A stretch of DNA of 26,955 nt from Candidatus Bathyarchaeia archaeon (GCA_049512075.1 JBEKXL010000027.1:1-26955), one strand, 5' to 3'; positions 7,169-26,955 are shown, counted from the stretch's first letter. Numbers and translations: made by a program. Notes: generated by a model from the sequence alone, not told the origin.

Positions 7169-7200
7169 AACTGCAAGGCAAACGTCAACAAGGAGTCACC

Positions 7201-10304: not shown

Positions 10305-10444
10305 GGGACATCACTTGAGTATTGAAACACGCTGGCAGAAACTATTAAGTTTTGCCAGAGTAAAAAATAGAAGCAACCAGTAACACCTGTCCCGCCCTCA
10401 GGCAACTCTCTCAGCATAAGCCTCTTTAGAGGCTACGTACAATA

Positions 10445-11161: not shown

Positions 11162-11165
11162 AATA

Positions 11166-11804: not shown

Positions 11805-11812
11805 GTTCGGGT

Positions 11813-12382
11813 TTAGAGAGGTTGTTCGTAGAATATTAGGTCTTGATCCTCGAGTATCTTGTGAAGCTTGCGCACTGCGTCATAGACATCCTGTTCTTTC
11901 TTAGCTCCCGTGCAAACAAGTTTCCCGCTTGCAAACAAGAGTATAACGACCTTAGGCTCGTCCATCCTGTAAATCAGACCGGGAAACTGTTCAGGTTCAT
12001 ACATCGTCTTTCCAAGTGTATACGGGGCCTTTTCCAAGTCTATCATTCCCCCCAAGCTGGCTGAGGCGACTATGTTCTGAATCTTCAACTCTGGTTTGCT
12101 GATGATTATTATTCCGCCCTTCTTCAACTCCTTGACCACTTTCATGACCGCTCTGCGTGCTTCCTTCTCCGACTTCGCCCCCGTACAAACCATCTTTCCA
12201 GAGTTGAAAATCAGCGTCGCCGTCTTCGGTCTCTTGAGCCTGAACACTAAGCCTGGAAACTGTTCAGGGCGATATTCAACTCCCGGATAACTCTTCACAA
12301 CAGCGTTCAAGTCAACCTTCTGGTTTAAAGTGGCAGAGGCAACAACGTTCACGATGTTTATTATAGCTTTGCTCTTCGGCAT
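11813..12382 (-). CDS. tbp: TATA-box binding protein
   Basis: Two repeats of NVVASA...YxPEQFPGL...LF-SGK-VCTGAK. Confidence 0.98.
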   Translation of the reverse strand: MPKSKAIINIVNVVASATLNQKVDLNAVVKSYPGVEYRPEQFPGLVFRLKRPKTATLIFNSGKMVCTGAKSEKEARRAVMKVVKELKKGGIIIISKPELKIQNIVASASLGGMIDLEKAPYTLGKTMYEPEQFPGLIYRMDEPKVVILLFASGKLVCTGAKKEQDVYDAVRKLHKILEDQDLIFYEQPL

Positions 12383-12420
12383 AGAAGCCCACTTCTTACT
12401 ACTGAATTGCTTAAATACCC

Positions 12421-12428
12421 TTTATAAA
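12421..12428 (-). promoter_or_regulatory. Putative TATA box of tbp
   Basis: TTTATAAA about 40 bp upstream of the tbp ATG. Confidence 0.45.
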
Positions 12429-12589
12429 GCCTCAGGTAGGTGCATTTTCAGTTTAGGCAGGGTGTTTTCGCTTCCTGAGCTACGTGAGAGAAAGAGTTTT
12501 GTTTCTTTCTTTTTGGAAAGGGTGTTTTAAGCTTCTTTTCAGTGGCACGCCTTGGGTCATGGTTCGTCCACGGCTGGGATTGACGCGGG

Positions 12590-12623
12590 AAGGCGTGAAT
12601 CGTACTGGAAAGGTGTGAATCGT
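12590..12623 (+). repeat. Tandem 14-bp direct repeat AAGGYGTGAATCGT, 20-bp period
   Basis: aaggcgtgaatcgt at 12590-12603 and aaggtgtgaatcgt at 12610-12623, immediately before the AbrB-like start. Confidence 0.7.
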
Positions 12624-12934
12624 TGCCCCTGACTGAGTCTGTAAGCTTCAAAGCCGTGTTGCAGAAGAGAAGCCGCGTTCAGATTCCCAGGTTGTTTTGT
12701 TGGCAGTACAGGATGGAGGCGAATCAGGTGTTGAAAGTCAACGTCAGGATTGCGGGTTCTTTCGTTGACGAGAGGTTTCTTGCGAGGATGACGAGAGACG
12801 GCCGCCTGACGATTCCAAAATTGACTTTGAAGCTTCTGCAGGAGGGCAAAGAAGAAAGCCTAGAAGGCTGCGTCCTCGAAGTCACCGTTGAGCCGGCAGA
12901 CGAACAGGGTGAAAAGCCGGAGCTGAACCCTTAA
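12623..12934 (+). CDS. AbrB/MazE/SpoVT-like DNA-binding protein with duplicated swapped-hairpin
   Basis: Two related halves: FKAVLQKRSRVQIPR...LKVNV and FLARMTRDGRLTIPK...LEVTV. Confidence 0.7.
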   Translation: MPLTESVSFKAVLQKRSRVQIPRLFCWQYRMEANQVLKVNVRIAGSFVDERFLARMTRDGRLTIPKLTLKLLQEGKEESLEGCVLEVTVEPADEQGEKPELNP

Positions 12935-12940
12935 GGCCCC

Positions 12941-13135
12941 GTGTCAACACAAACCGGGAAAGCGCGCGCCATTGAAGGCATACGCAAAGAGTTCAGTGAC
13001 AGCATAGCCAACCTTGTGCTGGAGGACAAAACACTCAGGGAGCGGCTTGTGAAAGTAGAAGAAGACCTGAAGTGGGCAATTGACGAAATTGAAAATCTGG
13101 AGACTGATGGCAAGGGCTACAACAAAGAGGGCTAG
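12941..13135 (+). CDS. Small coiled-coil protein or gene fragment
   Basis: 64 aa, heptad-like (LRERLVKVEEDLKWAIDEIENLE); bracketed by two GCGCGCGC sites. Confidence 0.45.
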   Translation: MSTQTGKARAIEGIRKEFSDSIANLVLEDKTLRERLVKVEEDLKWAIDEIENLETDGKGYNKEG

Positions 13136-13143
13136 CGCGCGCT
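13132..13143. repeat. CTAGCGCGCGC motif copy
   Basis: ctagcgcgcgct; includes the TAG stop of the 64-aa ORF. Confidence 0.75.
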
Positions 13144-13166
13144 TATTGGTCCAAGAGTGACACGTG

Positions 13167-14648
13167 TCAACCGTAGTATTTTGCGAGCATGGCAAGGTCC
13201 GCCGAGTCAACAACTCCGTCGCCGTTGATATCCGCATTGCGGTTCCACTTAGCGTCTCCTGGTTTTGAGCCGTAGGAGTCTGCTAGCAGAACGAGGTCTT
13301 GAAGGTTGACTTTGAAGTCTCCGTTTATGTCTCCTGGAATAGTGATGTGCGCGCCTGCAGGCGGGTCTGCGTCGATTTGCAAGGTGCCTTGAACGACAGA
13401 AACAGGTATTTCCTGTGCATTGTTGTCATTCAGTTCGCTATAAGTTATCCGCAATTGGCTGTAGAAGTCTGATTGATTCAGGACTTGTGAGGGTTGTCCA
13501 GTTACCTGGAAAGTTATCTTTGCCACGAGTCCGTCATCGTTATTCCATCCCACCTTAGCGGTGCTGGCGGCACACACAGCGTATTGGGTTGCTTGATCAT
13601 AACTTGCAGTGTCAATAATCTGGTTCCCCTTGACATCGAAGAATCCGTCGAAAACATAAAGCAAGGACCCAGTAAGTACACCTCCTGATTGGCCGAGCAT
13701 CGTCGTGAATCCGATGGGCTTGCAATAGTTCAGAATGTTTCCGAAGTCAAAGTACACTTCAACACCGCAAACACCAGCCGGAACATTCGCTTCAGTTGCG
13801 TTTCTAAAGTGTATCTCCACAGTGAAGGTTTGTCCCACCGCAGACGGAGAAGAAGGTATCTCCAAACCGTTAATGCTCGCGTTCACGTCAATTAGAGGAT
13901 CAACCGCGACTGGCTCTACGCTAAAATACACCTGCGCTTGCTGTTTGTAAGTAAGAGGATTCGGGATGGGAGGAAGGAGAGAGGTAGCGCCCGCGCTATA
14001 CTTGCTTGACAGGTCATTGATTTGATTTTGCAGGGAATTGGCTTGATTTTGTAGGGTTGTGATTTGTCTTTGCAGATTTGCAATCGTACTGTTGTCGGCT
14101 GCGACTATGGAATTGTTTGATGCAAGCTGGTTTTCAAGTTCAGCTGTTTGAGAATTCAAAGAATTGATCGTTGAGTCGGCCGATAGGATTTGGTTTTGAA
14201 GAGCTGTGACTTGAGAGTTCAACAAGGAAATCGTACTATTCTTGTCGTTCACTGCTGACATGTGATATGCGAATGCTCCGACTAGGCCAACACCGAGAAT
14301 GATACAGATTATTCCTAGTGCGAGGACGCGCGCTCGTTCACGTCTCCAAAATCTGGGCCAAAATTGAGTGCGTAGAGGAGTGCTTGATGGTTCTTCCACC
14401 TGTTTCATAGTGGAAACGGCGATTCTTCCAAGAGACGACAAAGCGTATTCTCCGTGTTCAGTTTTTGCCAGAAGACTTGTTAAACCTTCCAAATGATAGG
14501 TCAAATGAGAGCTTTCTATGCCTAGGGTTCTCTGCAAGTCTGAAAAACTCTGCGGCCCTGCCGAAAGGGTTCTCAGTATCTTCCTGCGAATAGGGTGTCT
14601 CAAAGATGTGAAAACCGTCGAATAGGTTTCTTCTTCGAAGCCGCCCAT
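13167..14648 (-). CDS. Membrane-tethered wHTH protein with coiled coil, cohesin-like domain and type I dockerin
   Basis: ATG 14648 with GGTGA RBS. ArsR-like wHTH (LRHPIRRKIL...SFSDL...HLTYHL); TM VLALGIICIILGVGLVGAF; N/Q/S heptad coil; cohesin-like (VGQTFTVEI...GVEVYFDF...GLVAKITFQV); dockerin (GDINGDFKVNLQDL...ADINGDGVVDSADL). Confidence 0.85.
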   Translation of the reverse strand: MGGFEEETYSTVFTSLRHPIRRKILRTLSAGPQSFSDLQRTLGIESSHLTYHLEGLTSLLAKTEHGEYALSSLGRIAVSTMKQVEEPSSTPLRTQFWPRFWRRERARVLALGIICIILGVGLVGAFAYHMSAVNDKNSTISLLNSQVTALQNQILSADSTINSLNSQTAELENQLASNNSIVAADNSTIANLQRQITTLQNQANSLQNQINDLSSKYSAGATSLLPPIPNPLTYKQQAQVYFSVEPVAVDPLIDVNASINGLEIPSSPSAVGQTFTVEIHFRNATEANVPAGVCGVEVYFDFGNILNYCKPIGFTTMLGQSGGVLTGSLLYVFDGFFDVKGNQIIDTASYDQATQYAVCAASTAKVGWNNDDGLVAKITFQVTGQPSQVLNQSDFYSQLRITYSELNDNNAQEIPVSVVQGTLQIDADPPAGAHITIPGDINGDFKVNLQDLVLLADSYGSKPGDAKWNRNADINGDGVVDSADLAMLAKYYG

Positions 14649-14888
14649 GGTCTCACCAACAAATATAGGGTTCTCAGCACGAGTTAAGCGTTTTCGTAAA
14701 GAAACCTTTACGAATGTTTGAGTTTTAGGCATCGAGTCTCTGTCAAAATCTTTGTCAACTACGCATTATGGGGTCAAACTTCCTTGACGGTTTTGCGAAG
14801 GGGCGCTACGTTTGGTTCGGACTTTTATAGTTTGTCTTCCTAGCCCGCACGCGCGGGACACTGTTGCTGTAACCGCATATTCAAATCC

Positions 14889-14900
14889 AGCGCGCGCTAA
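14889..14900. repeat. TAGCGCGCGC motif copy (reverse orientation)
   Basis: agcgcgcgctaa; variants nearby at 14840-14857 and 14929-14939. Confidence 0.7.
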
Positions 14901-14976
14901 TAGGGAAGTGCCCCAATAGTTCAGCCTACTAGGCGCGCCAACCTACAAAGCGAGGAACAATAGACTGTAATGCGCC

Positions 14977-15324
14977 CAATAGCCTTACCCGCCTCTTTTG
15001 TTTGGAGGAAGAGGTATTAAGATGCTTAGACTTGCAGGAAAATACGCCGACATCTGTTTTATCCCAGAAGAAAACCCAAAAGAGTTCTCCAGAGCCAAGG
15101 ATGAAGTTGTAAGAGCTGCCAAAGAGGAGAATAGAACAGGCATTCCGCCCTTCGCTTGTTTAGTTGGCATTAGAACAATGGAAGGAAAGGACGATTTCCG
15201 TTTGAAACTTGAGAAAGCTACCAATTTTGGAGCATCCTACGTTGTTGCTGGCGTTGAGCGAAAACGAGATTACATGCAGTTTATTGAGCTTCTTGCCAAA
15301 GATATAATGCCGTCTTTCGGATAG
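14977..15324 (+). pseudogene. 5'-truncated luciferase-like (LLM) oxidoreductase fragment
   Basis: Frame reads Q*PYPPLLFGGRGIKMLRLAGKYAD, matching the LLM motif PxQxPxPPxxxGG...AxxxAD. In-frame TAG at 14980; N-terminal part absent. Confidence 0.75.
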
Positions 15325-15397
15325 TCTTCAGCCGTTTTTAGATAACGTGTTTTTTGAATTAAAAGCACGAAAATAATCGGTCGGGTTTTCAAGACGC

Positions 15398-16315
15398 CTA
15401 GCTTACATATGCCAAATACAGACGCGCACATGTAGCCACGGTTGCTCCATCACCCACGCAGGCGGGTATTAGGTCCTTAACCGTTGAAGCGCACCCCCCA
15501 CTTGCGAAAACCCCTTCGACGTTCGTTCTTCCAAGATGATCGACAATAACACAACCTTGTCTGTGAGTTTTTAATCCAGCATTCCGCAAGACTGAGACAA
15601 ACGGCTTAACGCCTCCAACCACAAAGATGATGTCTGCCCTCAATGTCTTGTTTGCAGAACTGCTCACATGACGTAACACGAGCTGTTTTGACGGTGGTTT
15701 GCCTTTGATCTCTTTTCCTATAAAATCCTCTATTAGGCTGACCTTCCTCTTTTCCAGTTGCTCCTTCATCTGTTCGTCAATGTCAATCATGTTAGCATGG
15801 TTGACCAATCTTACACTCCTAGCTGTTGTAGTCAATCGCAAAGCTTCATCAACGGCTTCCTTGACATTGCCAACGACGATTATGTCCTTCCCCTTAAGGA
15901 AAGGCGCGCTGCATTCTGCACAGTAGGCAACACCGGCACCGAGCCAGGTCTCCCACTTCATACCTATGCCTTTCATTCCATCCCCGGTTGCCAGAATCAA
16001 AGCTTTACACTCATATTTTTCCCGTTTAGTTTCTACAACCTTCTCTTTTCTCTTTAGAGAAAGGTTGACAACCTCCTTCGAAGTGTGAAGCTCTGCACCG
16101 TCCTTCTCTGCTTGATACACCATTTTCTCCATGAGTTTCAGCCCAGAAATCTTGTTCCGAAAGCCCGGATAATTGGTTACTCCACGCGCTCTAGTTGCAA
16201 TTCCACCCGCTGTCTTGTCTTCCTCTAAAAGCAACGTATGCAAGCCAAAAACCGAGGAATGGATGGCTGCGGCTAAACCTGCGGGTCCACCGCCAACAAT
16301 AATTATGTCATACAC
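15398..16315 (-). CDS. trxB: Thioredoxin reductase-like FAD disulfide oxidoreductase
   Basis: GGGPAGLAAA, NYPGF, ATG, redox CAEC, TNVEGVFASG; the NAD(P)H-binding motif is atypical. Confidence 0.85.
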   Translation of the reverse strand: MYDIIIVGGGPAGLAAAIHSSVFGLHTLLLEEDKTAGGIATRARGVTNYPGFRNKISGLKLMEKMVYQAEKDGAELHTSKEVVNLSLKRKEKVVETKREKYECKALILATGDGMKGIGMKWETWLGAGVAYCAECSAPFLKGKDIIVVGNVKEAVDEALRLTTTARSVRLVNHANMIDIDEQMKEQLEKRKVSLIEDFIGKEIKGKPPSKQLVLRHVSSSANKTLRADIIFVVGGVKPFVSVLRNAGLKTHRQGCVIVDHLGRTNVEGVFASGGCASTVKDLIPACVGDGATVATCARLYLAYVS

Positions 16316-16614
16316 GTTATTCGCCCCCTTCCATCATTAAATTACTTGCGATCTCTTAAAGAATTAACTGAAACAGACCACGCTTGAGGGTTTGTCTTCG
16401 AACTGTTGTATAGAGGTTGGGTTCTAACCAGGCGCGGGTAAGATGGCGCCGTGGAAGGGGTTTTGTCACGAGCTTTAGCAAAAGGGAACAAGCGCGTGCA
16501 AAAAAATCAAAAATGACAGCCTGAGGTTTAAAGAAAGATACTTGGAGGCAGATCGTTCACCGAACAAGCAAGCTGCTGTCTCAATTTCGAGCCTTGATGG
16601 TTGAATGTACTGTC

Positions 16615-16974
16615 TTATCTTTTTTTGGTGTATTCGTAAAGTCCAAATAGGTTTCCGTCAGGGTCGGCAAACGTGGCCATGGCAGTTCCATCTTCCTCTG
16701 ACTTTGGAACAGTTACCTTACCTCCGAGTTTTACAACTTTCTCCAGCGTTTCGTCAATGTCATCCACCAAAATGTAAACAAGAACACAGGTAGGTTTCTC
16801 TTTAGGCATTCGCCACATCCCACCGCCTGGTTTTTCACCTGTATTGACCATCCAATAGGCGAAGTCCTCATTCTTGTCGCCTGTGATCTTCCAGTCAAAA
16901 ATGCTTCCATAGAAACTCTTTGCCATTTCCAGATCTCTCACTCGTATTTCAACCCAGTTAAACCTATTCGGCAA
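16615..16974 (-). CDS. VOC/glyoxalase family protein
   Basis: WVEIRVRDLEMAKSFYGSIFDW, VDDIDETL-KV--LGG, FADPDGNLFGL. TTG 16974 after a GGGGTGG RBS preferred. Confidence 0.88.
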   Translation of the reverse strand: MPNRFNWVEIRVRDLEMAKSFYGSIFDWKITGDKNEDFAYWMVNTGEKPGGGMWRMPKEKPTCVLVYILVDDIDETLEKVVKLGGKVTVPKSEEDGTAMATFADPDGNLFGLYEYTKKR

Positions 16975-17156
16975 CCATCCACCCCCTGCGAACTGACAAG
17001 ATTCCACTATTCAATAGGAGAGCCTTTGGATTTAGCTTTTATCCGTGACGAGCCCTCATTCTTCTGCGTGTTTGTTATAAGCAATTAGCCATAGCAACAG
17101 CTGGCAACAGCTTAGCAAGGAGTACACCGAATTGGTTAAAAGAACTACATCAGGAA

Positions 17157-18137
17157 ATGAATGTTATGGATCATTGGGAAACACGCCTAAACAAAGACCT
17201 CGTAGATTGGTTGCTAAGTGGCGAACCATGGATCACCTACCGCACTTTGACTGATCTTCTGGATACACAGGAAGGCGACAGGAGAGCTTTAGTTGCGCGA
17301 AAAGGTGTTCTTGAACACAAACTCATCAGGAAAATTCTAGATAAGCGAAATCTCAGGGGTTACTGGGGTGTTCAGAAGGATATTCACACTTGGTGGCCCA
17401 AGAAGGACACGACTTTTTGGGTCTTAGGGATTCTGGGAGACTTCGGGTTGAGAGTCGAGGACGAAGAACTGGCTAGAGCGACTGAGTATGTTTTCAGTAT
17501 CCAACAGGAGCGCGGTGCGTTCCTGGGGTTTGATCCTAGACTTCCTTACGATTGCCACACAGCGATTCTCACAGAGTCTATGGCAAAGCTCGAGCTTCTC
17601 TCAGATCGGAGAGTGCAGAGAGCCTATGACTGGCTTCTAGGAAGGCAAAGACATGACGGTGGATGGTGGTGTAAGAACACAGGTCAGGTTGGTGGACCAC
17701 GCGAAAAGGAGCCGAGCTGTGCAATGGCCACGATGTTTGTGCTTGGAGCATTGGCTCAAAATCCCAGACTTCGAAACAGTGAAGTTGCACGGAGGGGAGT
17801 TGATTTTCTTTTCGGATGCTGGGAAAACAGGGGGAAGATAAAATACGCTGGCCATGATAGCCAAGTTGGAACTGATTGGGAGAAGTTGAAATACCCTTTC
17901 ACAGACTACAAGATATTGAAGTTTCTGGATGTTCTGTCTCAGTTTGAATGCGCCAAACAAAGGGTCCAGGAATCAGAAATGGTAGACCTGCTTCTCTCAA
18001 AACAAGACTGCAAGGGAAGGTTTACCCCTGAATCAATCGTTAAAGTCTGGTCTGATTTTGACTTTGGACAGAAAGATAAACCTTCAAGGTGGATCACCCT
18101 TCTAGCTCTGCGCACAGCCAAGAGAATCTGCAGCTAG
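17157..18137 (+). CDS. Prenyltransferase/squalene-cyclase-like alpha/alpha-barrel repeat protein
   Basis: QW-like repeats (QQERGAF, QRHDGGW, QDCKGRF), WLL...PW, PSRWIT C-terminus. Confidence 0.75.
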   Translation: MNVMDHWETRLNKDLVDWLLSGEPWITYRTLTDLLDTQEGDRRALVARKGVLEHKLIRKILDKRNLRGYWGVQKDIHTWWPKKDTTFWVLGILGDFGLRVEDEELARATEYVFSIQQERGAFLGFDPRLPYDCHTAILTESMAKLELLSDRRVQRAYDWLLGRQRHDGGWWCKNTGQVGGPREKEPSCAMATMFVLGALAQNPRLRNSEVARRGVDFLFGCWENRGKIKYAGHDSQVGTDWEKLKYPFTDYKILKFLDVLSQFECAKQRVQESEMVDLLLSKQDCKGRFTPESIVKVWSDFDFGQKDKPSRWITLLALRTAKRICS

Positions 18138-18237
18138 ACCTTGATGCACGCGCGAAACCAGCTAGAGACGTCAAAGGCTTACTCTTGATGTAGAGAACTC
18201 GAAGGAAAACAAGGGAAATCGGTTAGTGAGGTGCAAT

Positions 18238-19380
18238 CTAGAGCGACAATGCACCATTCTTGACTAGCGTTTTCTCATCAATCTTGACAGTTGCTTCTGT
18301 CATTGAAGCCCACCAATGACGATTTCCAGACGTTCGGTTTTCTCCTCCCTTATCTTCGTTACCGCCGATCCCGATTGTAACTCCTCCCAAAACCTTATCA
18401 TCTTGGGTGAAGCCATGTTTCAAGCCAGGATTCAGTCCCAGCCCGAAGAATGCAAACTTCGCGGCGTCGCCCTCACATGACTTCAGATAGTTTTCAAACT
18501 CAGAAATCCCAGATTGTGCCTCGTATCTAACGACTTCTCCCTGCTTGAAATGCAGGGCTAAATCCTTAATCTTTTTACCTCCCCTAACCGAAATCACAGC
18601 ATCATAGACCACAGTTCCCTCTGCGCTGGTTTCATCTGCTGCCACTTCAACAAACCCTGAAGGCAAGAACTTCACAGTTCCTTTGGCTCCATCTTCCTTG
18701 TTCACCACGCTGTCTCCTGAAATAGGTTCACGCCCACTCAACTTGAGCTTGAGTTTTGTGCCAAAGGACGTCACAACACTAACATCTCGACCCTTCTTAA
18801 CGACCTTAGCCACCCTAGAGGCTGTTCGGGCGATTTCCTTCTGGTCGACCATGCACCCGGCTAGCATGACCTCCTTCCATTTTTCATAATCTAACCCCAG
18901 AGCTTGCGCCCAATGTTTTGTCGCCATGCAGTATTCGACGCCTAACACGCGGATAGAGTGTTCACTGGCGATCTTTCGCCACGCGTCCATGTACTTGTTT
19001 GACTCTAGAAACCAAAGGTTAGCAAGCTCTTGTTTCTCCGAAGGAATTTTGCCCCAATCCACGGGGTTCTTCGGACCCATCAGAAAAATGAACGCATCAG
19101 TCCGCTCCAAGGCAGCAGCTTGATGTGCAGGCAAAATCTCCAACAGTCTTTTCGGGATTTCTAGTAGTGAACGCATCCAGTAGTCCTCCGTGGTGAGAGT
19201 AATGAATGGTTGGGCTCCTTTTTCCCGACAAGCAAAGGCTATTTCGGAAGCAATTTCAATTGTATGATCCCAACCATGAATCCAAACGTTTTCGCCCTCT
19301 CTAATGTTCAAGCATCCAGAAACTACTTGATGTGCAAGCTGCCTGTAATCTTCCATTTGCTCTGTCTCCATGGTTTTCAT
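18238..19380 (-). CDS. M29 (aminopeptidase T-like) homolog, metal ligands degenerate
   Basis: LA--VV--CLNIREGENVWI, GTKL, LPSG, GLGLNP, DDKVLGG, GGN...GG; start may be 19371. Confidence 0.8.
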   Translation of the reverse strand: MKTMETEQMEDYRQLAHQVVSGCLNIREGENVWIHGWDHTIEIASEIAFACREKGAQPFITLTTEDYWMRSLLEIPKRLLEILPAHQAAALERTDAFIFLMGPKNPVDWGKIPSEKQELANLWFLESNKYMDAWRKIASEHSIRVLGVEYCMATKHWAQALGLDYEKWKEVMLAGCMVDQKEIARTASRVAKVVKKGRDVSVVTSFGTKLKLKLSGREPISGDSVVNKEDGAKGTVKFLPSGFVEVAADETSAEGTVVYDAVISVRGGKKIKDLALHFKQGEVVRYEAQSGISEFENYLKSCEGDAAKFAFFGLGLNPGLKHGFTQDDKVLGGVTIGIGGNEDKGGENRTSGNRHWWASMTEATVKIDEKTLVKNGALSL

Positions 19381-19478
19381 ACGTTTTATTAGCAGTTAAA
19401 TTTTCTCTCCAATCGCATGCGCAGAGGAGCCGCCGACTCTGCTCACGTTTAAAAACTCAGGCTTTTACATAACCAACT

Positions 19479-20171
19479 ATGGAAGAGAAATATCGCCAAT
19501 TGAGGACGATTGTTGAGAAGGAAATGGACGGAGCAAGTCCCGCACATGACATCAATCATGTGATGAGAGTCTACAACTTATGCCTAGAATTGGCAAGCTA
19601 TGAACTAGATGTTGATATGGATGCCCTGAAAACCGCAACCTTGCTTCATGACATCGCCAGGACTAAAGAAGACAAACACGGACACACCCACTTGCTGAGT
19701 GTAGACCATGCTGCTCTCGGGGCTGAGATGAGCGGCAAAATCCTGAAAGAGCTGGGTTATCCAGAAGAAAAGATAGAGCATATCAAACATTGCATCGCAG
19801 CCCACAGATTTAGAGGAGGAAACACGGCAAAAACAATAGAAGCAAAGATTCTGTCTGACGCTGACAAACTGGACGTTTTGGGAGCAACAGGAATTGCAAG
19901 ATCATACACGATTGGAGGAGAATGTGGCCAGAAAATCTATTCGGACACTCCAGTAGACAAGTACATCAAAGAAAACCTTGCTGGCAGCAAGCCTGACGGC
20001 AGAATCATCGATCCATCAAAGCACGCCTCAAACCTCGAGTTCGAAACAAAATTCAAACATGTCCCGGACAGACTGCATACTCAAAAAGCAAGAGAAATTG
20101 CAAGAGAAAGATTGGAGCATATGGCCCAGTTCTTTGAAAGACTGAAAAGAGAAATTGACGGTCAATTATAG
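19479..20171 (+). CDS. HD-domain phosphohydrolase (YedJ-like)
   Basis: AHDINHVMRV, LLHDI, DHA, AHRFR, DADKLDVLGATGIAR. Confidence 0.9.
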   Translation: MEEKYRQLRTIVEKEMDGASPAHDINHVMRVYNLCLELASYELDVDMDALKTATLLHDIARTKEDKHGHTHLLSVDHAALGAEMSGKILKELGYPEEKIEHIKHCIAAHRFRGGNTAKTIEAKILSDADKLDVLGATGIARSYTIGGECGQKIYSDTPVDKYIKENLAGSKPDGRIIDPSKHASNLEFETKFKHVPDRLHTQKAREIARERLEHMAQFFERLKREIDGQL

Positions 20172-20188
20172 ATTCAAGCAGTGAAGAC

Positions 20189-20199
20189 CTAGCGCGCGC
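20189..20199. repeat. CTAGCGCGCGC motif copy
   Basis: ctagcgcgcgc starting 18 bp after the HD gene stop. Confidence 0.75.
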
Positions 20200-20336
20200 C
20201 ACGATCGTTGTACTTTTCTTTGTTATGCATGTGCAAAATGCTTGACAGACTCGACAAGATTGGCAATGTTGAAACGCACAAAACCTTAAGTGCGCGCATT
20301 GGCACAGATTATTCAATCGCTTAGCGAAGGTCAAGC

Positions 20337-20732
20337 ATGAGCCAAGAGAGGAAGCTCCAGAGAATTGACAGGGAGAAGCTGCCATTATTCTATAGGTTTA
20401 TCTTGAAGATTCCAATTCCTGCAATCATCTCGTCTATAGATATCCCGAGCGGCATCTTCTATGCGATAATTCTTCCGATTTTTATGTTGTTGGACTTTTT
20501 TCTGAACATCTATTTTCTGATTGGTTTTGGTTTCCCGATTAACATCTTATTGGTTTGTGTTGTTCCCGTTGTCTTCCTGGCGATTTTTGTAAGAGCCACC
20601 GCAGACAGGTTCATAAATTGGTGGAACTCTGGCGTGGTCGGCGGCTATGTTCAACGGGACGTCAAAGAGGTAATGAAAGAATATCTTGCTCTGAAAGAGA
20701 ACAAAGCCAAAGAGGAAACAACAAGCGGATAG
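20337..20732 (+). CDS. Hypothetical 2-TM membrane protein
   Basis: 131 aa, two central hydrophobic helices, charged termini. Confidence 0.7.
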   Translation: MSQERKLQRIDREKLPLFYRFILKIPIPAIISSIDIPSGIFYAIILPIFMLLDFFLNIYFLIGFGFPINILLVCVVPVVFLAIFVRATADRFINWWNSGVVGGYVQRDVKEVMKEYLALKENKAKEETTSG

Positions 20733-20993
20733 GTCTGCCCTCCGATGCATTCACCTACTGAAACCCACTGCACCGACAAGATGGGTTTTGTTTTGAACTA
20801 CTAAGGCGAAGAAACCCATCGAAGAATTGGGCAAAGACCATTCCTACAGTCAATATCTTTGGTCATCAAGGATCCACGCCCTAGAATTCATCAACTCGCT
20901 CGCTATATCACACCGCTCGCTACTGGAAGAATTCAATAGTTGATTTTTCCATAACTCATAAGAAGGGGCAAGGGAGTTAATGCATGATGCGCT

Positions 20994-22619
20994 ATGGATA
21001 AGGGAGCTTCACTTCTAGCCATTTTTGCCGCTTTACTGCTGATATCCTTATTCTCTTTGACCATGAGGTCTGCCTTGGCTTTTGATTATACAAACGTCTC
21101 AGTTCAGCAAGCTAAAGCGATGATTGACTCTAACCCTTCCTTGGTGATATTGGACGTGAGGAACCAGAGCGAATATGATTCGGGTCACATCAGAAACGCA
21201 AAGCTGATTCCAGTCTGGAATCTAACACAGAGGCTAGATGAACTGAACAGTTCCGACACTATCTTGGTATACTGCGGGTCAGGCGTCAGAAGCACAAGTG
21301 CAAGTGAAACACTCGTCAACAACAGCTTCCTTCACATCTACAACATGATCGGCGGAATAACCGCGTGGGGTTTGGCTGGATACCCAGAGTACGTCAACTA
21401 CACTTCAATACAAGGAGCCATCGATAACGCAACTGAAGGTAGTACAATCTTGATATCCACTGGATTCTACAGCGAGCACCTAATGATTAATAAATCGATA
21501 ACTCTGGTCGGGGAAAACAGATACACGACAATTATCGATGGCAGCAATAGCGGTACGATTCTCGACATAGCGTCCGACAACGTGTCAATCAGCGACCTCA
21601 CGATAGAACGTCCTGGATGTACATGTGAAGGAAACTATGGAACTCTAATAGAAGACCACCATTCAGGAATAAGCTTAGTAGACAATGAGATAGTAACCGA
21701 CAGCGTTGGCATCAACGCCACATCGGCACATGATGTGCTCATAGCCTACAACAACTTTTCACAAGACTATGTTACAAGCATGTCTATCTTGAACTCCTCA
21801 AACATCATGATAACTGGCAACAACATGACGGGTTTTATGCAGGGGGTAGAGATCACAGACTCCAGCAACGTCACATTTTCCAAGAACATTCTCTTGGGCA
21901 GTGGCGAAGGAGTGGTCATTCAAAACTCCAATGGAAGCACCTTTTGTGGAAACCAGTTCCTGCAGGACTCTTTCGGAATTAGCCTCCGTCAATCCAACGA
22001 CAATCTCATATACGACAACGACTTCAAAGAAGACTTCCGCGACGTTTCGAGCCAGGAATCAATGAACCGTTGGGACAACGGCGTGGAAGGGAACTTCTGG
22101 GGGAACTACACTGGAGTCGATGCAAACATGGACGGAATAGGAGACACACCCTACAGCATAGACGTGAACAACACAGACAATTATCCGTTGATGGGCATTT
22201 TTGCCAGTTACGAGACGAACGATCAGGAAGTTGATTTCATAAGCAATTCCTCCGTAACCGGCTTCAGCTTCAGCGTCGCCAACTCTTCCGGGACTTTAGG
22301 CTTTGCAGTCGCTGGAGAGAACGGAACACAGGGCTTCTGCAGACTGAACATTCCAAAAGCGTTGATCAATGGTTCCTACATCGTCATGTTTGATGGACAA
22401 GTGATTACGGAGCCTCAATTCCGCGTACTGCCAGCCTCAAACGAGAACTACACCTACATTTACATGAACTACACTCACAGCGAACACACAATAGAGGTCA
22501 GCGGAGAGACAATGGTTCAGGAGTTTCCGTCAATCGCGTTCCTGACAATTCTCATGTTGGGAACACTGTCGGCTGGCATAGTCTACAGAAGAAAAGACGC
22601 CGGTCCTTCCAAGAGATGA
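20994..22619 (+). CDS. Secreted rhodanese / NosD-type beta-helix surface protein with PEF-CTERM-like tail
   Basis: Signal peptide; rhodanese (LDVR--EYDSGHIRNA, YCGSGVRS, GGITAW); SIQGAID, parallel beta-helix repeats, GNFWGNY-G-D-N-DGIGDTPY; VQEFP-TM-YRRK. Confidence 0.88.
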   Translation: MDKGASLLAIFAALLLISLFSLTMRSALAFDYTNVSVQQAKAMIDSNPSLVILDVRNQSEYDSGHIRNAKLIPVWNLTQRLDELNSSDTILVYCGSGVRSTSASETLVNNSFLHIYNMIGGITAWGLAGYPEYVNYTSIQGAIDNATEGSTILISTGFYSEHLMINKSITLVGENRYTTIIDGSNSGTILDIASDNVSISDLTIERPGCTCEGNYGTLIEDHHSGISLVDNEIVTDSVGINATSAHDVLIAYNNFSQDYVTSMSILNSSNIMITGNNMTGFMQGVEITDSSNVTFSKNILLGSGEGVVIQNSNGSTFCGNQFLQDSFGISLRQSNDNLIYDNDFKEDFRDVSSQESMNRWDNGVEGNFWGNYTGVDANMDGIGDTPYSIDVNNTDNYPLMGIFASYETNDQEVDFISNSSVTGFSFSVANSSGTLGFAVAGENGTQGFCRLNIPKALINGSYIVMFDGQVITEPQFRVLPASNENYTYIYMNYTHSEHTIEVSGETMVQEFPSIAFLTILMLGTLSAGIVYRRKDAGPSKR

Positions 22620-22791
22620 AAAAGGAGTTTGCGGGAGAAATCGCCATTTCCAGCTGATTAAAGCAATTAGGACACGTTGATAACAACTAGGCAGGGGCGC
22701 TCTCCACCGTTCTAACTTCTGGAACGGAACTGTACTAACGCTTAGCATAATATGGCATGATGTCTTCAATAGTTAAGATGTGGTTAACTCG

Positions 22792-24690
22792 ATGGAAAAA
22801 CAAATCAAGAAAAAAGCCATTCTCTATGGAATTGCAGCGATCCTTCTTGCCTCGACCTTTGGCGTAGTACTCTACAACTACGGAGTTTTTCAGACGCTGC
22901 TGAATCCCGCTGCTCCCCAAATCCCGGTTGCACATTCTTCTTTTCTGGCCACTTTTCCCTCAGCCGAAGCACTGAAGAGCTTCTTGAAAACCAACTCACA
23001 AACACAAGGGCCGTTTTCACTTTATGGACCTGCGGACACCAAGGCGTTCGGCTCGCCCAGCGGACCAGTTTTGCCCGCATTGATCAATGCTTTTTCCATA
23101 ACTTCGGATACCATGGGTGAAAGCTACCAACATTCTGCCACGAACATTCAAATCGCAGGAGTTGACGAAGCAGACACAGTGAAAACAGATGACAACGGCT
23201 ACATGTATGTTCTATCAAACGACACTGTCTATATACTAACCGCCTATCCACCAACACAAGCCGTAGTGCTCGCCAAAATCAAGTTCGCCGACATGTATCC
23301 CATTGGAATCTTCGTCAGCGGCGATAGATTGGCTGTACTGGGATCACAATACAGTTTCCCTGTACTCACGTTTCCTCTCTATGACAGATTCTACGTCGCC
23401 GACATCAAAACTTTCGTGAGAGTGTACAACATTCATGACAGAAGCGATCCCGTCCTCATCAAAGACCTTGCCTTGGACGGTAGCTACTTCAGCTCAAGAA
23501 TGATCGGTGACTACATCTACTTTGTCGCGAGCAAACCAGCTTACACGGTTGACGACACAATCTTTCTGCCAGAAATCCTCATGAACGGAAGAGCCACGAA
23601 GATAGCTCCGACAGAAATCCGATACTTCAACGGAACGGAAGAATACTATCAATACACGACGTTTGTCGCAATGAACATCCAGAACACGACAGAAGCACCG
23701 ACGTACCTGACAACTTTGCTCGGAGGGACAAGCAACATGTACGTTTCGCAAGAAAACATGTACGTGACATTCCAAGAATGGTACTGGGGCGGAAACACAA
23801 CGATATGCCGCATACACTTGCAAGCCAACAACATGACCGTCGAAGCCAGCGGCAAAATCCCAGGACAAGAACGCAACCAGTATTCAATGGATGAATACGG
23901 CAACTACTTCCGAATGCAAACCTCAACATTTTCTGATGGAGTCAGCCAGACGAACGTGTACGTGCTCGACATGAACCTCACCGTAGTAGGAAGACTGGAA
24001 AACCTAGCGCCAGGAGAGAACTTCCACTCCGCCCGCTTCATGGGCAACAGATGCTACCTAGTGACCTTCAAGAAAACTGATCCCCTGTTCGTCATAGACT
24101 TGAGCAACGCAACAAACCCGCGGGTTTTGGGCGAACTGAAAATCCCAGGATACTCAGACTACCTTCACCCATACGACGAGACTCACCTGATCGGTGTGGG
24201 CAAGAATACTGTCGAGGCGGAAGAGGGAGACTTCGCCTGGTATCAGGGAATAAAAATATCCCTCTTCGACGTAAGCAACGTAACTAACCCCATACAAGAC
24301 GCAACCTACGTAATCGGCGACAGAGGCTCAGACACACCAGTTCTAACGGATCCTAAGGCGTTCCTATTCGACAAGTCCAGGAATCTTCTCTCAATCCCAG
24401 TATTGGTAGCAAAGATAGACGAAAGCAAATACCCCAGCCCTGTTCCTCCCAGCGCTTACGGAGACGCAGTGTGGCAGGGCGCCTACGTGTTTGACATATC
24501 ATTGTACCACAACCTAGTGCTTGAAGGACGCATCACCCACCTGGACAATAACACGAACATCTACGAGCAAGGACACTGGATCAAGAGATCAATATACATC
24601 GAAGACGTCTTCTACACAGTATCAGACCGAATGATAAAGATGAACAGACTAGAAGACATGAGCCAGATAGACCAAGTCCCGCTCTCCTAA
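22792..24690 (+). CDS. Secreted/membrane-anchored beta-propeller domain protein (Beta_propel family)
   Basis: N-terminal TM; TNIQIAGVDEADTVKTD, NQYSMDEY, YLVTFKKTDPLFVIDL, LGELKIPGYSDYLHP. Alternative GTG start at 22780. Confidence 0.9.
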   Translation: MEKQIKKKAILYGIAAILLASTFGVVLYNYGVFQTLLNPAAPQIPVAHSSFLATFPSAEALKSFLKTNSQTQGPFSLYGPADTKAFGSPSGPVLPALINAFSITSDTMGESYQHSATNIQIAGVDEADTVKTDDNGYMYVLSNDTVYILTAYPPTQAVVLAKIKFADMYPIGIFVSGDRLAVLGSQYSFPVLTFPLYDRFYVADIKTFVRVYNIHDRSDPVLIKDLALDGSYFSSRMIGDYIYFVASKPAYTVDDTIFLPEILMNGRATKIAPTEIRYFNGTEEYYQYTTFVAMNIQNTTEAPTYLTTLLGGTSNMYVSQENMYVTFQEWYWGGNTTICRIHLQANNMTVEASGKIPGQERNQYSMDEYGNYFRMQTSTFSDGVSQTNVYVLDMNLTVVGRLENLAPGENFHSARFMGNRCYLVTFKKTDPLFVIDLSNATNPRVLGELKIPGYSDYLHPYDETHLIGVGKNTVEAEEGDFAWYQGIKISLFDVSNVTNPIQDATYVIGDRGSDTPVLTDPKAFLFDKSRNLLSIPVLVAKIDESKYPSPVPPSAYGDAVWQGAYVFDISLYHNLVLEGRITHLDNNTNIYEQGHWIKRSIYIEDVFYTVSDRMIKMNRLEDMSQIDQVPLS

Positions 24691-24728
24691 ACCCCCTATC
24701 TTTTTCTCCATTCGTCAATGAAAACGAG

Positions 24729-24763
24729 CGCGCAACCACAAATGAAAAAATTGGGGTTGTGCG
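24729..24763. terminator. Imperfect 13-bp hairpin between convergent genes, beginning in a GCGCGC site
   Basis: cgcgcaaccacaa-9 nt-ttggggttgtgcg, with one G-T pair and one mismatch. Confidence 0.4.
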
Positions 24764-24936
24764 GGAGAACTCCACTATCGTTAATGTGATTTCTCAGCAA
24801 TACCAATAAAAGACCAAGCAAAAGCCAGCTTAAAAAGAATATGCCGAAAGCGTAGAACATGAAAACGCTAAAATCAAATGGTCGGAAATGCTTTTATGCA
24901 AATCAGTTTCTCAGGAGTGATAAGGAATCAAAACAG

Positions 24937-25434
24937 TCAGGTTTTGAGCCCATTCATTATCTCGTTTGCGAAGGTTCTCGCTCGCTCCAATCGTGTCGCA
25001 TCGGGTTGACCTTTACTACTATCAAGTCGCGCCCATTTACGCTCTTTCGACCTCGGACTAAGTCGCATGAAGGTTTTAATTAGTCGAGAGACTTGTCCTT
25101 GGCAGTCGAAAATGCCAATAATATTAGCCCCCACGGCAGCATCTCTAAATTTCTGAATCCATTCCTGCAAAAGCGGTGCCCCCTCGGGAGCCATGTGAGT
25201 GACAAAGAGCGCTATTGCTCTATCCTTGACGCGAGTTTCCAAGAAAGCCCTAGCCTTCTTATCTGGACCATATCCATGTATTGGAAACCCTAGAAATGAG
25301 AGGTCGTAGCCTTCAAGTGATGTTACATCTTCGACCCGTTTAATCTCTTTTGGTTGAGGAATCGCATCATAAATGGCTTCAGCAACTTTCTTTGTATTTC
25401 CAGTCCGAGACATGTAAGCAACCAAAACTTTCAT
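24937..25434 (-). CDS. Flavodoxin family protein
   Basis: FMN loop YMSRTGNTKKVAEAI, YDL-FLGFP, ALFVTH, FDCQG. Confidence 0.9.
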   Translation of the reverse strand: MKVLVAYMSRTGNTKKVAEAIYDAIPQPKEIKRVEDVTSLEGYDLSFLGFPIHGYGPDKKARAFLETRVKDRAIALFVTHMAPEGAPLLQEWIQKFRDAAVGANIIGIFDCQGQVSRLIKTFMRLSPRSKERKWARLDSSKGQPDATRLERARTFANEIMNGLKT

Positions 25435-25594
25435 GAATAACCACCGATAAACTACTATACATTGGGCAGTCTTTATAGATTATGCAGACTTTTCTGATGC
25501 GTCCTGTATCAAGAATTAGCCTTTCCGCAAAACCAAAAACTGTCTTAAAAGATTGATAGAAATGTCTTCTAGTCACAGGTTAAAGTCGAATTGG

Positions 25595-25608
25595 CTAGCG
25601 CGCGCGCT
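25595..25608. repeat. CTAGCGCGCGCGC motif copy
   Basis: ctagcgcgcgcgct; the 13-mer ggctagcgcgcgc is identical to 13130-13142. Confidence 0.75.
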
Positions 25609-25698
25609 TTCAAAGACTTCGCAGGTGAGTAAGTAATAGTCAAAAAGCATAAAAGCGCGGGGATAAGAAACTCAATTTGATAAAAGAAGGCTTTTATT

Positions 25699-26577
25699 AT
25701 GAGCGTAGAGGAAGTCAAAGATTATTTTAAAATGTCTGATGGCTTCAACCTATTTTTTAGGCACTGGAAAGCCGTTGGGAAAGCAGAGAAATCCATAGTG
25801 TGTGTCCATGGGCTGGGATGTCACTCCGAATTCTTCAAACCCATCGGAGAGAATTTAGCTGCAAATGGGGTAGAGGTTTATTCTCTAGACCTGAGAGGTT
25901 TCGGAAACTCGAAAGAAGAGGGCATCCCCAGAGGGGATACGAGAGACTTCAAGAGACATATGCAAGACTTGGACGAAGCAGTTGATTTTGTGCGGAAGGG
26001 TTATCAAAACCAAAAGGTCTACATGTTTGGTCACAGTCTGGGCGGATGCTACACTCTATGGTATGCAGCAAACCATCCAGACTCGTTGGACGGAGTAATG
26101 CTCGCAGCCCCAAACATAGAAAGCGGATTAAGACCACCGCGAAGATTTCTCATTGAACTTCCTTTTGTATTTCTTTTTGCACCCAAGAAAACCTTTGATA
26201 TGTACGAAGCATGGCCCCAAAGTCTCAAAGAAAGCGAAGAGGGCAAAGTGTGGCGTCAAGACCCATTAAGCACAACAAAGTTCAGTTGTCGCTGGCTAGT
26301 TGGCACGAAAACTCTGAGGGATAAAGCACTTCAGAATGCATCGCAGATAAAGAAGCCAACACTGATAATTCAAGGAGAAGCAGATAATCTTGACTTTCCC
26401 AGTGGAGCCAAACGGCTTTTAGAAAACCTTGCGGCTAAAGACAAGTCGCTCCGAACCTTTCCAGATGCAGACCATTGGTTTTACGACGCCATTTTCCCTA
26501 AAGTAACTGCCAAACACGACCCTGAAAAAAGAGAGCAAGTGTTCTCAATAGTCAATGATTGGTTAAAGACGAAATAG
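25699..26577 (+). CDS. Alpha/beta hydrolase, lysophospholipase/monoglyceride lipase family
   Basis: VHGLGCHS, DLRGFGNS, nucleophile GHSLGG, QGEAD, H in DADH. Confidence 0.92.
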   Translation: MSVEEVKDYFKMSDGFNLFFRHWKAVGKAEKSIVCVHGLGCHSEFFKPIGENLAANGVEVYSLDLRGFGNSKEEGIPRGDTRDFKRHMQDLDEAVDFVRKGYQNQKVYMFGHSLGGCYTLWYAANHPDSLDGVMLAAPNIESGLRPPRRFLIELPFVFLFAPKKTFDMYEAWPQSLKESEEGKVWRQDPLSTTKFSCRWLVGTKTLRDKALQNASQIKKPTLIIQGEADNLDFPSGAKRLLENLAAKDKSLRTFPDADHWFYDAIFPKVTAKHDPEKREQVFSIVNDWLKTK

Positions 26578-26829
26578 GCAAGAGCAAAATGCTGAGATTC
26601 TACATTAAGAACAATAGGTTTGTTTCGAAATCCAAATAGCACCGAAAGAGCGCGCTACAGTAGATGACGAACCCTTTCTGTATCTTCGTCAGACAGTAAC
26701 GACATATTGTTTTTAAGCGTCTTGTTGCTCATGGTATATCGGAGATACCAAAAATGTCGAGTCAAAAGCGAGTTTTCGGGAGAAAAACCGAACAACGTTG
26801 ATATCCACTCTGAACTTGAAAGTCGTAAA

Positions 26830-26955
26830 GTAGTTTCCCCCGGAGCAAGCTCCGGGGCTCTATGGTGTTGCTTCTTCTTGTTCTTCTCGTATGTATTTTC
26901 TGACGGCGTCGAGGTTTAGTCCGCCTACTGTGTTAACGCAGTATCCGCCTGCCCA
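26830..26955 (-). mobile_element. IS200/IS605-family element, right end (truncated by window)
   Basis: tnpA C-terminus followed by the perfect hairpin CCCCGGAGC-TT-GCTCCGGGG (26838-26857), a 4-nt spacer and a tetranucleotide end. Confidence 0.85.
26860..26955 (-). CDS. tnpA: IS200/IS605 Y1 (HUH) transposase, C-terminal 31 aa (partial; not in ORF track)
   Basis: Hand translation WAGGYCVNTVGGLNLDAVRKYIREEQEEATP* matches the W-GY---TVG...V--YI--Q motif containing the catalytic Tyr. Confidence 0.88.
   Translation of the reverse strand, partial: WAGGYCVNTVGGLNLDAVRKYIREEQEEATP

Follow-up and report, generated by a model that had tools for sequence, protein, structure and literature searches.

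The 26,955-nt contig C27 of a Candidatus Bathyarchaeia archaeon (GCA_049512075.1 JBEKXL010000027.1:1-26955; this whole stretch is hereafter the window) carries a short palindrome of alternating G and C that recurs among single genes of unrelated function, and it raises the question of what this palindrome is and what put it there. An earlier reading made from the sequence alone (the sequence-only reading) had proposed a recombination or insertion site, or else a scar, belonging to a candidate cassette-shuffling system. We address the question by following the motif through the window, through its host genome G000 (2.73 Mb, 86 contigs, 47.5% G+C) and through related genomes. The stretch also occurs in sequencing runs from peat, wetland and freshwater metagenomes. 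Throughout, a run denotes an alternating GC/CG stretch of (GC)3 or more.

GC runs in the window and in the genus

A recount of the hexamer GCGCGC in the window returned the same 12 loci that the sequence-only reading had listed (12962, 13135, 13349, 14328, 14890, 14933, 15904, 20192, 20292, 24728, 25598 and 26650), all of them past 12.9 kb, with no match in positions 1-12,900. The 18 overlapping matches compare with 4.27 ± 2.06 in 100 dinucleotide shuffles, none of which reached 18. Five loci (12962, 13135, 14890, 20192 and 25598) are (GC)4 or longer, and the TAG prefixes reported for four of them were recovered: CTAG stands directly 5' of the run at 13132, 20189 and 25595, and its mirror form GCGCGCGCTAA at 14890. 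Degenerate forms were likewise found in other spacers, both as one-mismatch octamers (GCACGCGC at 14847 and 18146, GCGCGTGC at 16492) and as looser versions (CGCATGCGC near 19412; CGCTCGCTA twice, near 20896 and 20913). On a rough map of open reading frames (ORFs), nine of the 12 loci are intergenic and three (13349, 14328 and 15904) are coding; the earlier count had been eight intergenic.

Genome-wide, G000 carries 1,227 runs, and the density in the window (12 in 27 kb) equals the genome mean. On a heuristic, greedy longest-ORF map (2,992 ORFs covering 84.7% of the DNA), 717 runs fall in the 15.3% of the genome between ORFs, which corresponds to 1.72 runs per kb versus 0.22 per kb within ORFs (~8-fold). 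The octamer GCGCGCGC is the top intergenic 8-mer of the genome, with 862 occurrences on both strands versus 40 expected under an order-2 model (21-fold), and no other dinucleotide repeat is over-represented like it in intergenic DNA; GCACGCGC and GCGCGTGC are themselves 4-5-fold over-represented. Runs occur in all four spacer types, convergent spacers included, and are least frequent in divergent ones. They are commoner just past stop codons than just ahead of starts, with 123 runs lying 0-20 nt after stops, in part because the TAG of TAGCGCGC doubles as a stop codon, as it does in 21 of 1,012 TAG-ending ORFs.

Little is conserved around the runs. Among 1,366 flanks, base bias is limited to positions -1 (A, 50%) and -2 (T, 38%), with no base preference past -2 and hence no attC-like structure, and in an all-against-all comparison 181 of 2,448 run flanks belong to any sequence family. 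Neighbouring runs 20-300 nt apart are 2-4 times commoner across the genome than under random placement. A unit of ~279 nt stands between (GC)4 runs at C26:22422-22700, C3:152456-152730, C13:8732-9011 and 3-6 further places in G000; it holds the tail of a dockerin-like gene and two direct copies of TTGTAATGTCAGATGTAAT, and its copies account for a second over-represented family of intergenic words (TGTAATGT, GATGTAAT).

The lengths of the runs in G000 (669 of 6 nt, 195 of 7, 284 of 8, 186 of 9, 105 of 10, 3 of 11, 2 of 12 and 1 of 13) break after 10 nt, and those in G002, a congener, break at the same point (41 runs of 10 nt versus 2 of 11 nt). The excess over geometric decay sits at 8-10 nt, plain hexamers being partly background, whereas other alternating dinucleotides decay smoothly and show no hump at these lengths. 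Simple dinucleotide slippage was rejected on the latter ground, and because insertions of 8-12 nt arise without a seed.

Per-strand counts of the word TAGCGCGCGC range from 23 to 121 in all five genomes of the genus (G000-G004; 1-12 for the backwards control) and from 0 to 6 in 25 of 26 further genomes searched, drawn from the family and order. The exception outside the genus, G018, has 29 and 27 copies, with a control that is also high (12 and 15). Run abundance is genus-specific. As the accessible text of one survey has it, GC6 and GC8 patterns are generally suppressed across prokaryotes (PMC4060949), which makes a genus with (GC)4 as its top intergenic 8-mer an outlier. A literature search of main texts, including the available part of PMC13343696, returned no description of GCGCGC hyper-abundance in archaea or of the elements described below.

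Runs lie at rearrangement joints

The comparison with G002, of which 1.22 of ~2.3 Mb was aligned to G000, comprises 218 best blocks (812 kb) with a mean identity of 94.1%. In the window, positions 32-12695 form a conserved core block without GCGCGC that encodes NFACT, RadA, fumarase, LarA and other proteins and is collinear with G002:C18:1-12696 at 93.9% identity. Past 12695 the window matches G002 only in shuffled blocks, which in G002 follow the order 15751-16491, 18177-20190 and 17023-18156, then 20246-21044 and 22260-22655. The matches of window segments 22697-24725 and 24745-26583 lie apart from each other, at two places in another member of the genus, G004. The contrast inside the window is one of core versus accessory DNA: since core-type aligned DNA holds 0.21 runs per kb, ~2.7 runs would be expected in 12.9 kb, and their absence there is unremarkable by itself.

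Several of the block ends touch a run (16491, 18156, 20190 and 24725), and G002 has runs of its own at the partners of window 17023, 20246 and 21044/22260. The degenerate run AAGCGCGTGC (16490-16499) sits at a homology boundary, where its G002 equivalent is ACGCGCGC and window 16492-18176 is missing from G002; the degenerate run GCACGCGCG at 18146-18154 marks the right end of the shared block 17023-18156 and is a run in G002 too. At 20189-20199, the position of a CTAGCGCGCGC copy, G002 homology stops at 20190 and no run is found at that point in G002. The hexamer at 20292-20297 lies 46 nt away from 20246, where a block starts and where G002 has a run. That at 24728-24733 lies beside the end of one G004 block (24725) and the start of the near-identical one (24745), and that at 26650-26655 lies 67 nt past the end of the latter (26583). 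The main boundary between core and accessory DNA, at 12695, has no run contact; it is 267 nt from the nearest run and falls within an ORF of 103 aa without a Pfam match (12623-12934, + strand). This ORF and ~160 nt upstream of it (window 12463-12934) recur in several copies, 71-89% identical, in G000, G001 and G002, and the loss of collinearity inside it may therefore reflect recombination between paralogues, unrelated to the motif.

Across the alignment, a run in either genome comes within 5 nt of 143 of the 411 internal block ends (83 on the G002 side, 78 on the G000 side, 18 on both), against per-genome controls in G000 of 3.8% for random spacer positions and 1.3% for ORF boundaries; a first sample of 448 kb of G002 gave a similar picture (65 of 191). 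Run density in G002 rises from 0.21 per kb in aligned blocks to 0.71 per kb in unaligned DNA and 5.75 per kb within 20 nt of block ends. Lone copies of the motif thus concentrate at rearrangement joints, and both expectations of the sequence-only reading, that the motif would follow accessory rather than core DNA and that synteny breakpoints would fall at it, were borne out.

Strain-level variation was assessed on Logan contigs assembled from sequencing runs, which cannot reveal rare alleles. In four listed pieces, contigs of X1, possibly the source sample, match window 12535-23688 and 24324-26583 with no differences, covering 11 of the 12 run loci (26650 lies outside). A contig from another study, X5, is 99.0% identical over 14686-24767, beyond which it has ~2.7 kb of other DNA and carries the flavodoxin segment (24768-25607) inverted, at ~84% identity. 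Its collinearity with the window resumes at 25608, the first base past the run 25598-25607 (within CTAGCGCGCGCGC, 25595-25607), and the other boundary, 24767, is 34 nt past the run at 24728. A further X5 joint (13351 to 14682) starts in the coding hexamer at 13349, but its short side is just 30 nt and we do not rely on it. At the left of the accessory part, a solitary (GC)4 run (12962-12969) forms the left edge of a 165-nt gene fragment, a 54-aa ORF without a Pfam match (12971-13135, + strand) whose stop codon is the TAG of CTAGCGCGCGC; the latter (13132-13142) is again a solitary run without an adjoining inverted repeat. A contig found in X1 and X6 matches only 12968-13128, between these two (GC)4 runs, and both of its flanks are unlike the window.

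The window segment 24745-26583, which encodes flavodoxin and a hydrolase, is 97.6-100% identical to G004:C1:499060-500686, where it stands in another context. Its neighbouring blocks are 84-90% identical, and this difference, together with the other context, suggests recent interspecies exchange. The G004 copy of the hydrolase gene has internal deletions of 75 and 136 nt with no GC run at the joints.

Some runs replace deleted DNA

The 119 collinear neighbouring block pairs of G000 and G002 divide into 51 replacements and 68 indels. Fourteen of the indels pair a run in the short allele with run-less ends of the long allele; a run in the short allele is accompanied by a run at one end of the long allele in five events and at both ends in two. 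Where the short allele has no run, the long allele has one at a single end in nine events, at both ends in one, and at neither in 37, several of which are ordinary insertions of insertion sequences (ISs) or integrative elements with duplications of 8-24 nt. In the 14 run-for-segment events the run stands for 229 nt to 10.9 kb of DNA; G000 carries the short allele in seven of them and G002 in the other seven. Deletion by restriction between two pre-existing sites was rejected, as the long alleles of these 14 events lack the sites.

Two events can be polarised. In G000 the interior of a gene for a secreted rhodanese-NosD protein (21045-22259 of ORF 20994-22619, + strand) is intact, whereas in G002 GCGCGCACGCT stands for codons 18-422; with the rhodanese and NosD domains gone and GCGCGCACGCT in their place, the G002 run is a deletion scar. 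In the second event G000 has CGGCGCGCGCTA where G002 has 1,111 nt (C18 47085-48197), and G004 shares the left junction and the first 215 nt of that segment. In both events the run-bearing allele is the derived deletion. Some lone copies are, then, derived deletion scars. Of the two natures that the sequence-only reading had offered, site or scar, the scar is favoured by the 14 of 68 indels with a run in place of a run-less segment, and the site fits less well.

Within aligned DNA, 119 runs are shared and 104 differ by substitution (60 G000 runs and 44 G002 runs), and in ten cases a bare run of 8-12 nt, for example AGCGCGCGCG, makes up the whole indel. Many of the substituted runs show changes of CG to TG or CA (GCGCGC versus GCGTGC, GCACGC or GTGCGC in aligned G000 and G002).

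The motif forms the ends of an insertion sequence and its derivatives

The largest family of run flanks, with 83 members, is an inverted repeat of the form GCGCGC-N5-TGTYSCTAAAT. G000 has 163 matches to this repeat and 50 inverted-repeat pairs, mostly of 131-304 nt, which are inverted-repeat transposable elements of the miniature type (MITEs), and two pairs, of 1,109 and 1,122 nt, contain a transposase ORF of 289-295 aa. One transposase (L040:271-1158) matches PF01609 (DDE_Tnp_1; E 4.3e-24) and PF05598 (DUF772; E 8.9e-14), and the second copy matches the same two families (E 5.9e-17 and 6.6e-6). The element stays below every NCBIfam IS-family cut-off (the best are IS1182, 143.4 bits against 270, and then IS5_4, 104.4 against 140) and was assigned to no family; it is classed from its sequence as a divergent IS5/IS1182-like member, with a DDE transposase of the IS4/IS5 superfamily. 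Homologues of the transposase occur in all five genomes of the genus, flanked by the same repeats ~1.1 kb apart, and among 40 IS copies from many separately deposited metagenome-assembled genomes (MAGs) of Bathyarchaeia/Bathyarchaeota, 60 of 80 ends are GCGCGC. In this IS and its MITEs, the terminal inverted repeats have the motif, (T)A-(GC)3-5, at their outer edge. A relative of 54% identity in a genome of another genus, G023, has the inverted terminal hexamers CCGTGC/GCGTGC and no motif expansion, which indicates that the GCGCGC hexamer belongs to the element.

Element ends vary between (GC)3 and (GC)4, both in MITE copies and in the IS. TA is present on both sides of 12 of ~40 MITEs and on one side of about 19 (read from a listing), and the 40 IS copies have a flanking 'ta' on the left in 14 cases and on the right in 7. 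Like IS5/IS1182-group elements and their MITEs, the element is 1.07-1.12 kb long, encodes one ~290-aa DDE_Tnp_1 and DUF772 transposase, has terminal inverted repeats of 25-45 nt and has given rise to many short non-autonomous copies, some with passengers; unlike them, it ends in a perfect GC palindrome of variable length, its TA is often one-sided, and lone copies of its terminal 6-10 nt outnumber the elements by ~8 to 1. Indeed, 131-151 of the 1,227 runs (~12%) adjoin a recognisable repeat and ~88% stand alone, including all 12 in the window. The 12 window loci gave no inverted-repeat score and the window holds no repeat family; a long repeat or MITE around its runs was rejected accordingly.

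Copies without transposase but with passengers occur in G000 at C2:331-1242, C2:161410-161891 and C35:464-944; their inverted repeats enclose a 234-aa membrane protein or a ~140-aa Lrs14-like helix-turn-helix (HTH) protein with a Cys-rich tail. At C26:23355-23563 of G000, a 131-nt MITE appears by eye to lie directly past the CCA end of an apparent tRNA gene.

The absence of a visible recombinase, remarked upon in the sequence-only reading, applies to the window, where a scan of 20 ORFs recognised no recombinase domain (no genome-wide search for tyrosine or serine recombinases was made); it does not extend to the rest of the genus, which has DDE transposases with GCGCGC-ended repeats and a Ku-LigD operon. 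The latter, complete in G002 (C3:46204-49168; L098), encodes LigD Prim-Pol, Ku and a ligase-phosphoesterase (PF21686, PF02735, and PF01068 with PF13298). Ku was found in four of the 31 related genomes searched, namely G000 (C16:6054-6590), G002, G004 and G010; it turned up in neither G001 (77% complete) nor G003 (93% complete).

Origin of the lone runs

Lone runs, at (GC)3-5, match the (GC)3-4 of the element ends, such that the scar has the sequence of the terminus. We favour, with about even confidence, the explanation that lone runs are join scars left by cutting at the GC ends of the elements and re-joining of the cohesive GC tails. A cut at an element end would leave the flanking DNA with a short GC tail that is complementary to itself; a pair of these tails, or a tail and a resected end, would anneal, and the cell's end-joining machinery (Ku-LigD) would seal them. 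Clean excision would produce a run of 8-12 nt, excision with one-sided resection a run replacing up to 11 kb, and pieces of DNA joined through GC tails would end up bounded by runs, while old scars could be reused as microhomology. As the tail is palindromic, joins would be possible in either orientation. If two 6-nt self-complementary tails had to share an overlap of 2 nt or more, the product would be 6, 8 or 10 nt long and never longer, in line with the ceiling at 10 nt, and IS copies with 'ta' more often at one end would yield the one-sided TA of lone runs, of which 34% have TA on one side. The genus-specific, intergenic excess of runs, their place at block ends, the two polarised deletions, the X5 boundary at 25608 and the Ku-LigD genes also speak for join scars, as do, although unpolarised, the four of ten collinear comparisons that set an element against a lone or degenerate run. 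Since lone runs have neither a duplication nor a repeat remnant, the cut, if they are footprints, must leave only the GC part.

Excision of Tc1/mariner, P and hAT elements leaves a few terminal bases, with flanking deletions that carry the footprint, and requires end joining. Compared with these eukaryotic footprints, the proposed scars are found in an archaeon, number ~1,000 in 2.7 Mb and lack a duplicated target, and the position of the cut is inferred; in keeping with a footprint, the scar is missing from the relative's unoccupied site in the ten bare run indels. Two variants of the excision scheme were rejected. Lone runs are not decayed stubs of inverted repeats, as prefix matches beside them are the same as beside isolated GCGC, and a TA-(GC)n-TA footprint is not their main form, both-sided TA being at chance level.

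A number of observations weigh against excision and re-joining as the source of the lone runs. We know of no IS4/IS5-type transposase that cuts ~6 nt inside its element, and Tn5 and Tn10 leave clean flanks. TA on both sides is seen at 4% of lone runs, as expected by chance, versus 12 of ~40 MITEs, and at several deletion scars the TA beside the run is missing from the long allele and is hence part of the filler. Lone runs show no flanking direct repeats above control (k = 3-6), no excess over isolated GCGC of inverted-repeat sequence past the GC run and no longer palindromes around them. No excision was caught directly: with 200-nt flanks, one of 73 elements could be aligned on both sides, and it is shared by G000 and G002, whereas with 700-nt flanks ten of 73 were collinear, four of them contrasting an element with a lone or degenerate run, unpolarised, and an outgroup search to polarise them returned only distant or split matches. 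Many rearrangements are free of the motif, as no run comes within 5 nt of 268 of the 411 block ends and 47 of 68 indels have none in the short allele, 37 of them having none anywhere. Ku and the motif are also dissociated in G003 (motif 64/65, no Ku found) and G010 (Ku, motif 0/2), and the ORF map behind the intergenic counts does not come from a gene caller.

Part of this evidence would be accommodated if the runs were generic end-joining filler, with breaks sealed via GC tails from a repair polymerase such as the LigD Prim-Pol and with the GC ends of the IS either unrelated in origin or gained by the same route. Runs that arise without an ancestral run (14 replacement indels and ten bare insertions), lone runs without target duplication or inverted-repeat remnant, (GC)n lengths that vary from (GC)3 to (GC)4 among near-identical MITE copies and IS ends, and the existence of a complete Ku-LigD operon are all in line with it. 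We nevertheless consider it rather unlikely, because the match to a transposon terminus would then be a coincidence, whereas the G023 data tie the hexamer to the element, because neither the (T)A flank preference nor the sharp 10-nt ceiling is expected from free tailing, and because Ku does not follow the motif; nor do we know of any GC-specific tailing by LigD. We place equally little weight on the reverse order of events, in which (GC)n came first and served as a target or fragile hot spot, ISs, MITEs and other DNA inserting there and duplicating GC units, or Z-DNA or cruciforms making runs break-prone so that variation built up beside conserved runs. Such a role would leave the source of more than 1,000 runs unexplained, along with the runs that stand in place of deleted DNA without an ancestral run; moreover, a run is present in both genomes at just 18 of the 143 run-associated block ends, the end hexamers of the G023 relative are inverted rather than direct repeats, and the reported suppression of GC6 and GC8 in prokaryotes speaks against pre-existing runs. 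It does agree with elements flanked on both sides by GC runs of variable length and no other duplication, with the run in both alleles of 7 of 68 indels, with the four of ten collinear sites at which one genome carries an element and its counterpart a lone run, and with a run common to G002 C16 and G000 C1:211,4xx that is kept although the DNA to its left is wholly different. ISs that target palindromes of the repetitive extragenic palindromic (REP) type provide a precedent in the accessible text of PMC1525189. REP sequences and bacterial interspersed mosaic elements are, as far as the available text of PMC1525189 and PMC3333891 goes, short extragenic palindromes in hundreds of copies at which ISs are found. 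REPs, however, are imperfect hairpins of 20-40 nt with a GTAG or CGTC tag, whereas just 6-10 nt are conserved here, and the Y1 transposases of G000, unlike those of REP/RAYT systems, belong to ordinary IS200/IS605 copies at contig ends.

We regard as improbable a functional signal, whether a site bound by a dimeric regulator or by a chromatin protein, an aid to termination or a methylation-linked palindrome like HIP1. The motif is palindromic, strongly intergenic and enriched just past stops, and 119 runs are kept at orthologous sites against 104 substituted; yet the retention of 119 of 183 G000 runs in aligned DNA is close to a rough neutral expectation at ~6-10% divergence (an estimate, not computed), the enrichment past stops comes partly from the TAG of TAGCGCGC, and runs occur in every spacer type, are genus-specific and are polymorphic in presence and arrangement. 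HIP1 (GCGATCGC) of cyanobacteria is, in the consulted portions of PMC5861425 and PMC4390886, an octamer palindrome more than 15-fold over-represented and lineage-specific, with an unknown or debated function, and in these respects resembles the motif; HIP1 is, however, abundant in genes and tied to cognate methyltransferases, while the motif is 8-fold depleted in ORFs and stands at rearrangement joints. With the C5 cytosine methyltransferase family PF00145 (the sole family searched) absent above cut-off from all five genomes of the genus, a HIP1-type methylation link was rejected. Even less probable, in our view, is a dedicated integron-like cassette system with (GC)n as the crossover of a specialised recombinase. 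As in integron attC arrays, unrelated single genes are split by a recurring palindrome and gene content varies between relatives; run-bounded units recur (one of 437 nt, with edges at runs, in at least four copies in G001, and those of ~279 nt in 6-9 copies in G000), the inversion seen at strain level abuts a run at one boundary and comes to 34 nt from one at the other, and the 1,685-nt segment 16492-18176 lies between degenerate runs where G002 has a single run. Nonetheless, there is no attC structure of ~55-140 nt, no conserved structure past the run, no common orientation and no adjacent integrase among the 20 window ORFs, and the commonest run event replaces site-less DNA (14 events, versus two with runs at both ends and in the short allele). 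The motif, moreover, is spread throughout the genome and the genus rather than in arrays beside an integrase, and arises at deletions, and the cassette-shuffling array put forward in the sequence-only reading is for these reasons not supported. That GC runs were put at joins by an error of assembly or sequencing is scarcely credible: the genomes of the genus are all MAGs and the runs do lie at junctions, but X1 contigs show no differences over 11 of the 12 run loci, X5 is ~99% identical at the same loci, 119 orthologous runs are conserved and 104 have point substitutions, and separate MAG depositions have the same repeat ends.

With lone runs as scars of cutting at element ends and re-joining, the best reading of the single-gene array in the window is ordinary accessory DNA peppered with scars, rather than a dedicated cassette platform.

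Other features of the window

The left end of the window (1-120, + strand) is the 3' end of an archaeal 16S rRNA gene (RF01959, 93.3 bits, E 1.4e-23), the sole match in an Rfam search of the window. The next gene within 1-2332 is the opposite-strand NFACT gene rather than 23S rRNA, and the rRNA genes therefore appear to be unlinked here.

Past the core, a domain scan and the ORF map agree with the sequence-only reading that functionally unrelated genes follow one another in mixed orientation. They encode a dockerin protein, a likely truncated luciferase-like fragment, a pyridine-nucleotide disulphide oxidoreductase, a glyoxalase, a prenyltransferase-like protein, an M29 peptidase, an HD-domain protein, the rhodanese-NosD protein, a beta-propeller protein, flavodoxin and an alpha/beta hydrolase. 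The dockerin protein, which also has HTH and coiled-coil regions (13167-14732, - strand), contains the coding hexamers at 13349 and 14328. Three runs ~43 nt apart (GCACGCGCG, GCGCGCGC-TAA and GGCGCGCC; 14847-14938) lie upstream of the truncated gene (14998-15324, + strand). That this gene is a fragment, as previously noted, is likely, although its match to the luciferase-like monooxygenase family PF00296 is weak and under the Pfam cut-off (residues 2-47 on profile positions 170-216 of 314; E 0.0043, 16.9 bits against 27.9).

The right end (26828-26955, - strand) is the end of an IS200/IS605-type element, comprising a TnpA C-terminus (PF01797, E 2.8e-4; 21.5 bits, slightly under the cut-off of 23) and a hairpin with a perfect 9-bp stem, and lies outside the GC-run family. 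This 127-nt end recurs at 11 further places in G000, nine of them at contig ends, which probably accounts for the breaks between contigs. At this end strain X5 departs from the window and has loose ends at 26783 and 26827/26828, an insertion polymorphism.

Significance of the runs

In these MAGs the run can serve to mark pseudogenes and truncated genes as well as the places where accessory DNA was joined. Were the runs repair filler or a recombination site, the responsible enzyme would be new. A further possibility, which we put forward only tentatively and hold to be doubtful, is that the transposase or a partner nuclease leaves GC tails that make any cut ends cohesive, so that segments are deleted, inverted, moved and captured with (GC)4-5 linkers. 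Palindromic transposon ends and archaeal Ku-LigD would in that case constitute a sequence-independent cassette shuffler that resembles restriction-ligation cloning and to which the genus would owe much of its accessory genome. If the lone runs are scars of excision, they would represent an unusually large archaeal record of end-joined cut-and-paste excision, with ~1,000 scars versus ~75 extant elements. They would then point to a eukaryote-like transposon dynamic and provide a sequence tag for past deletions and gene turnover in uncultured peat Bathyarchaeia.

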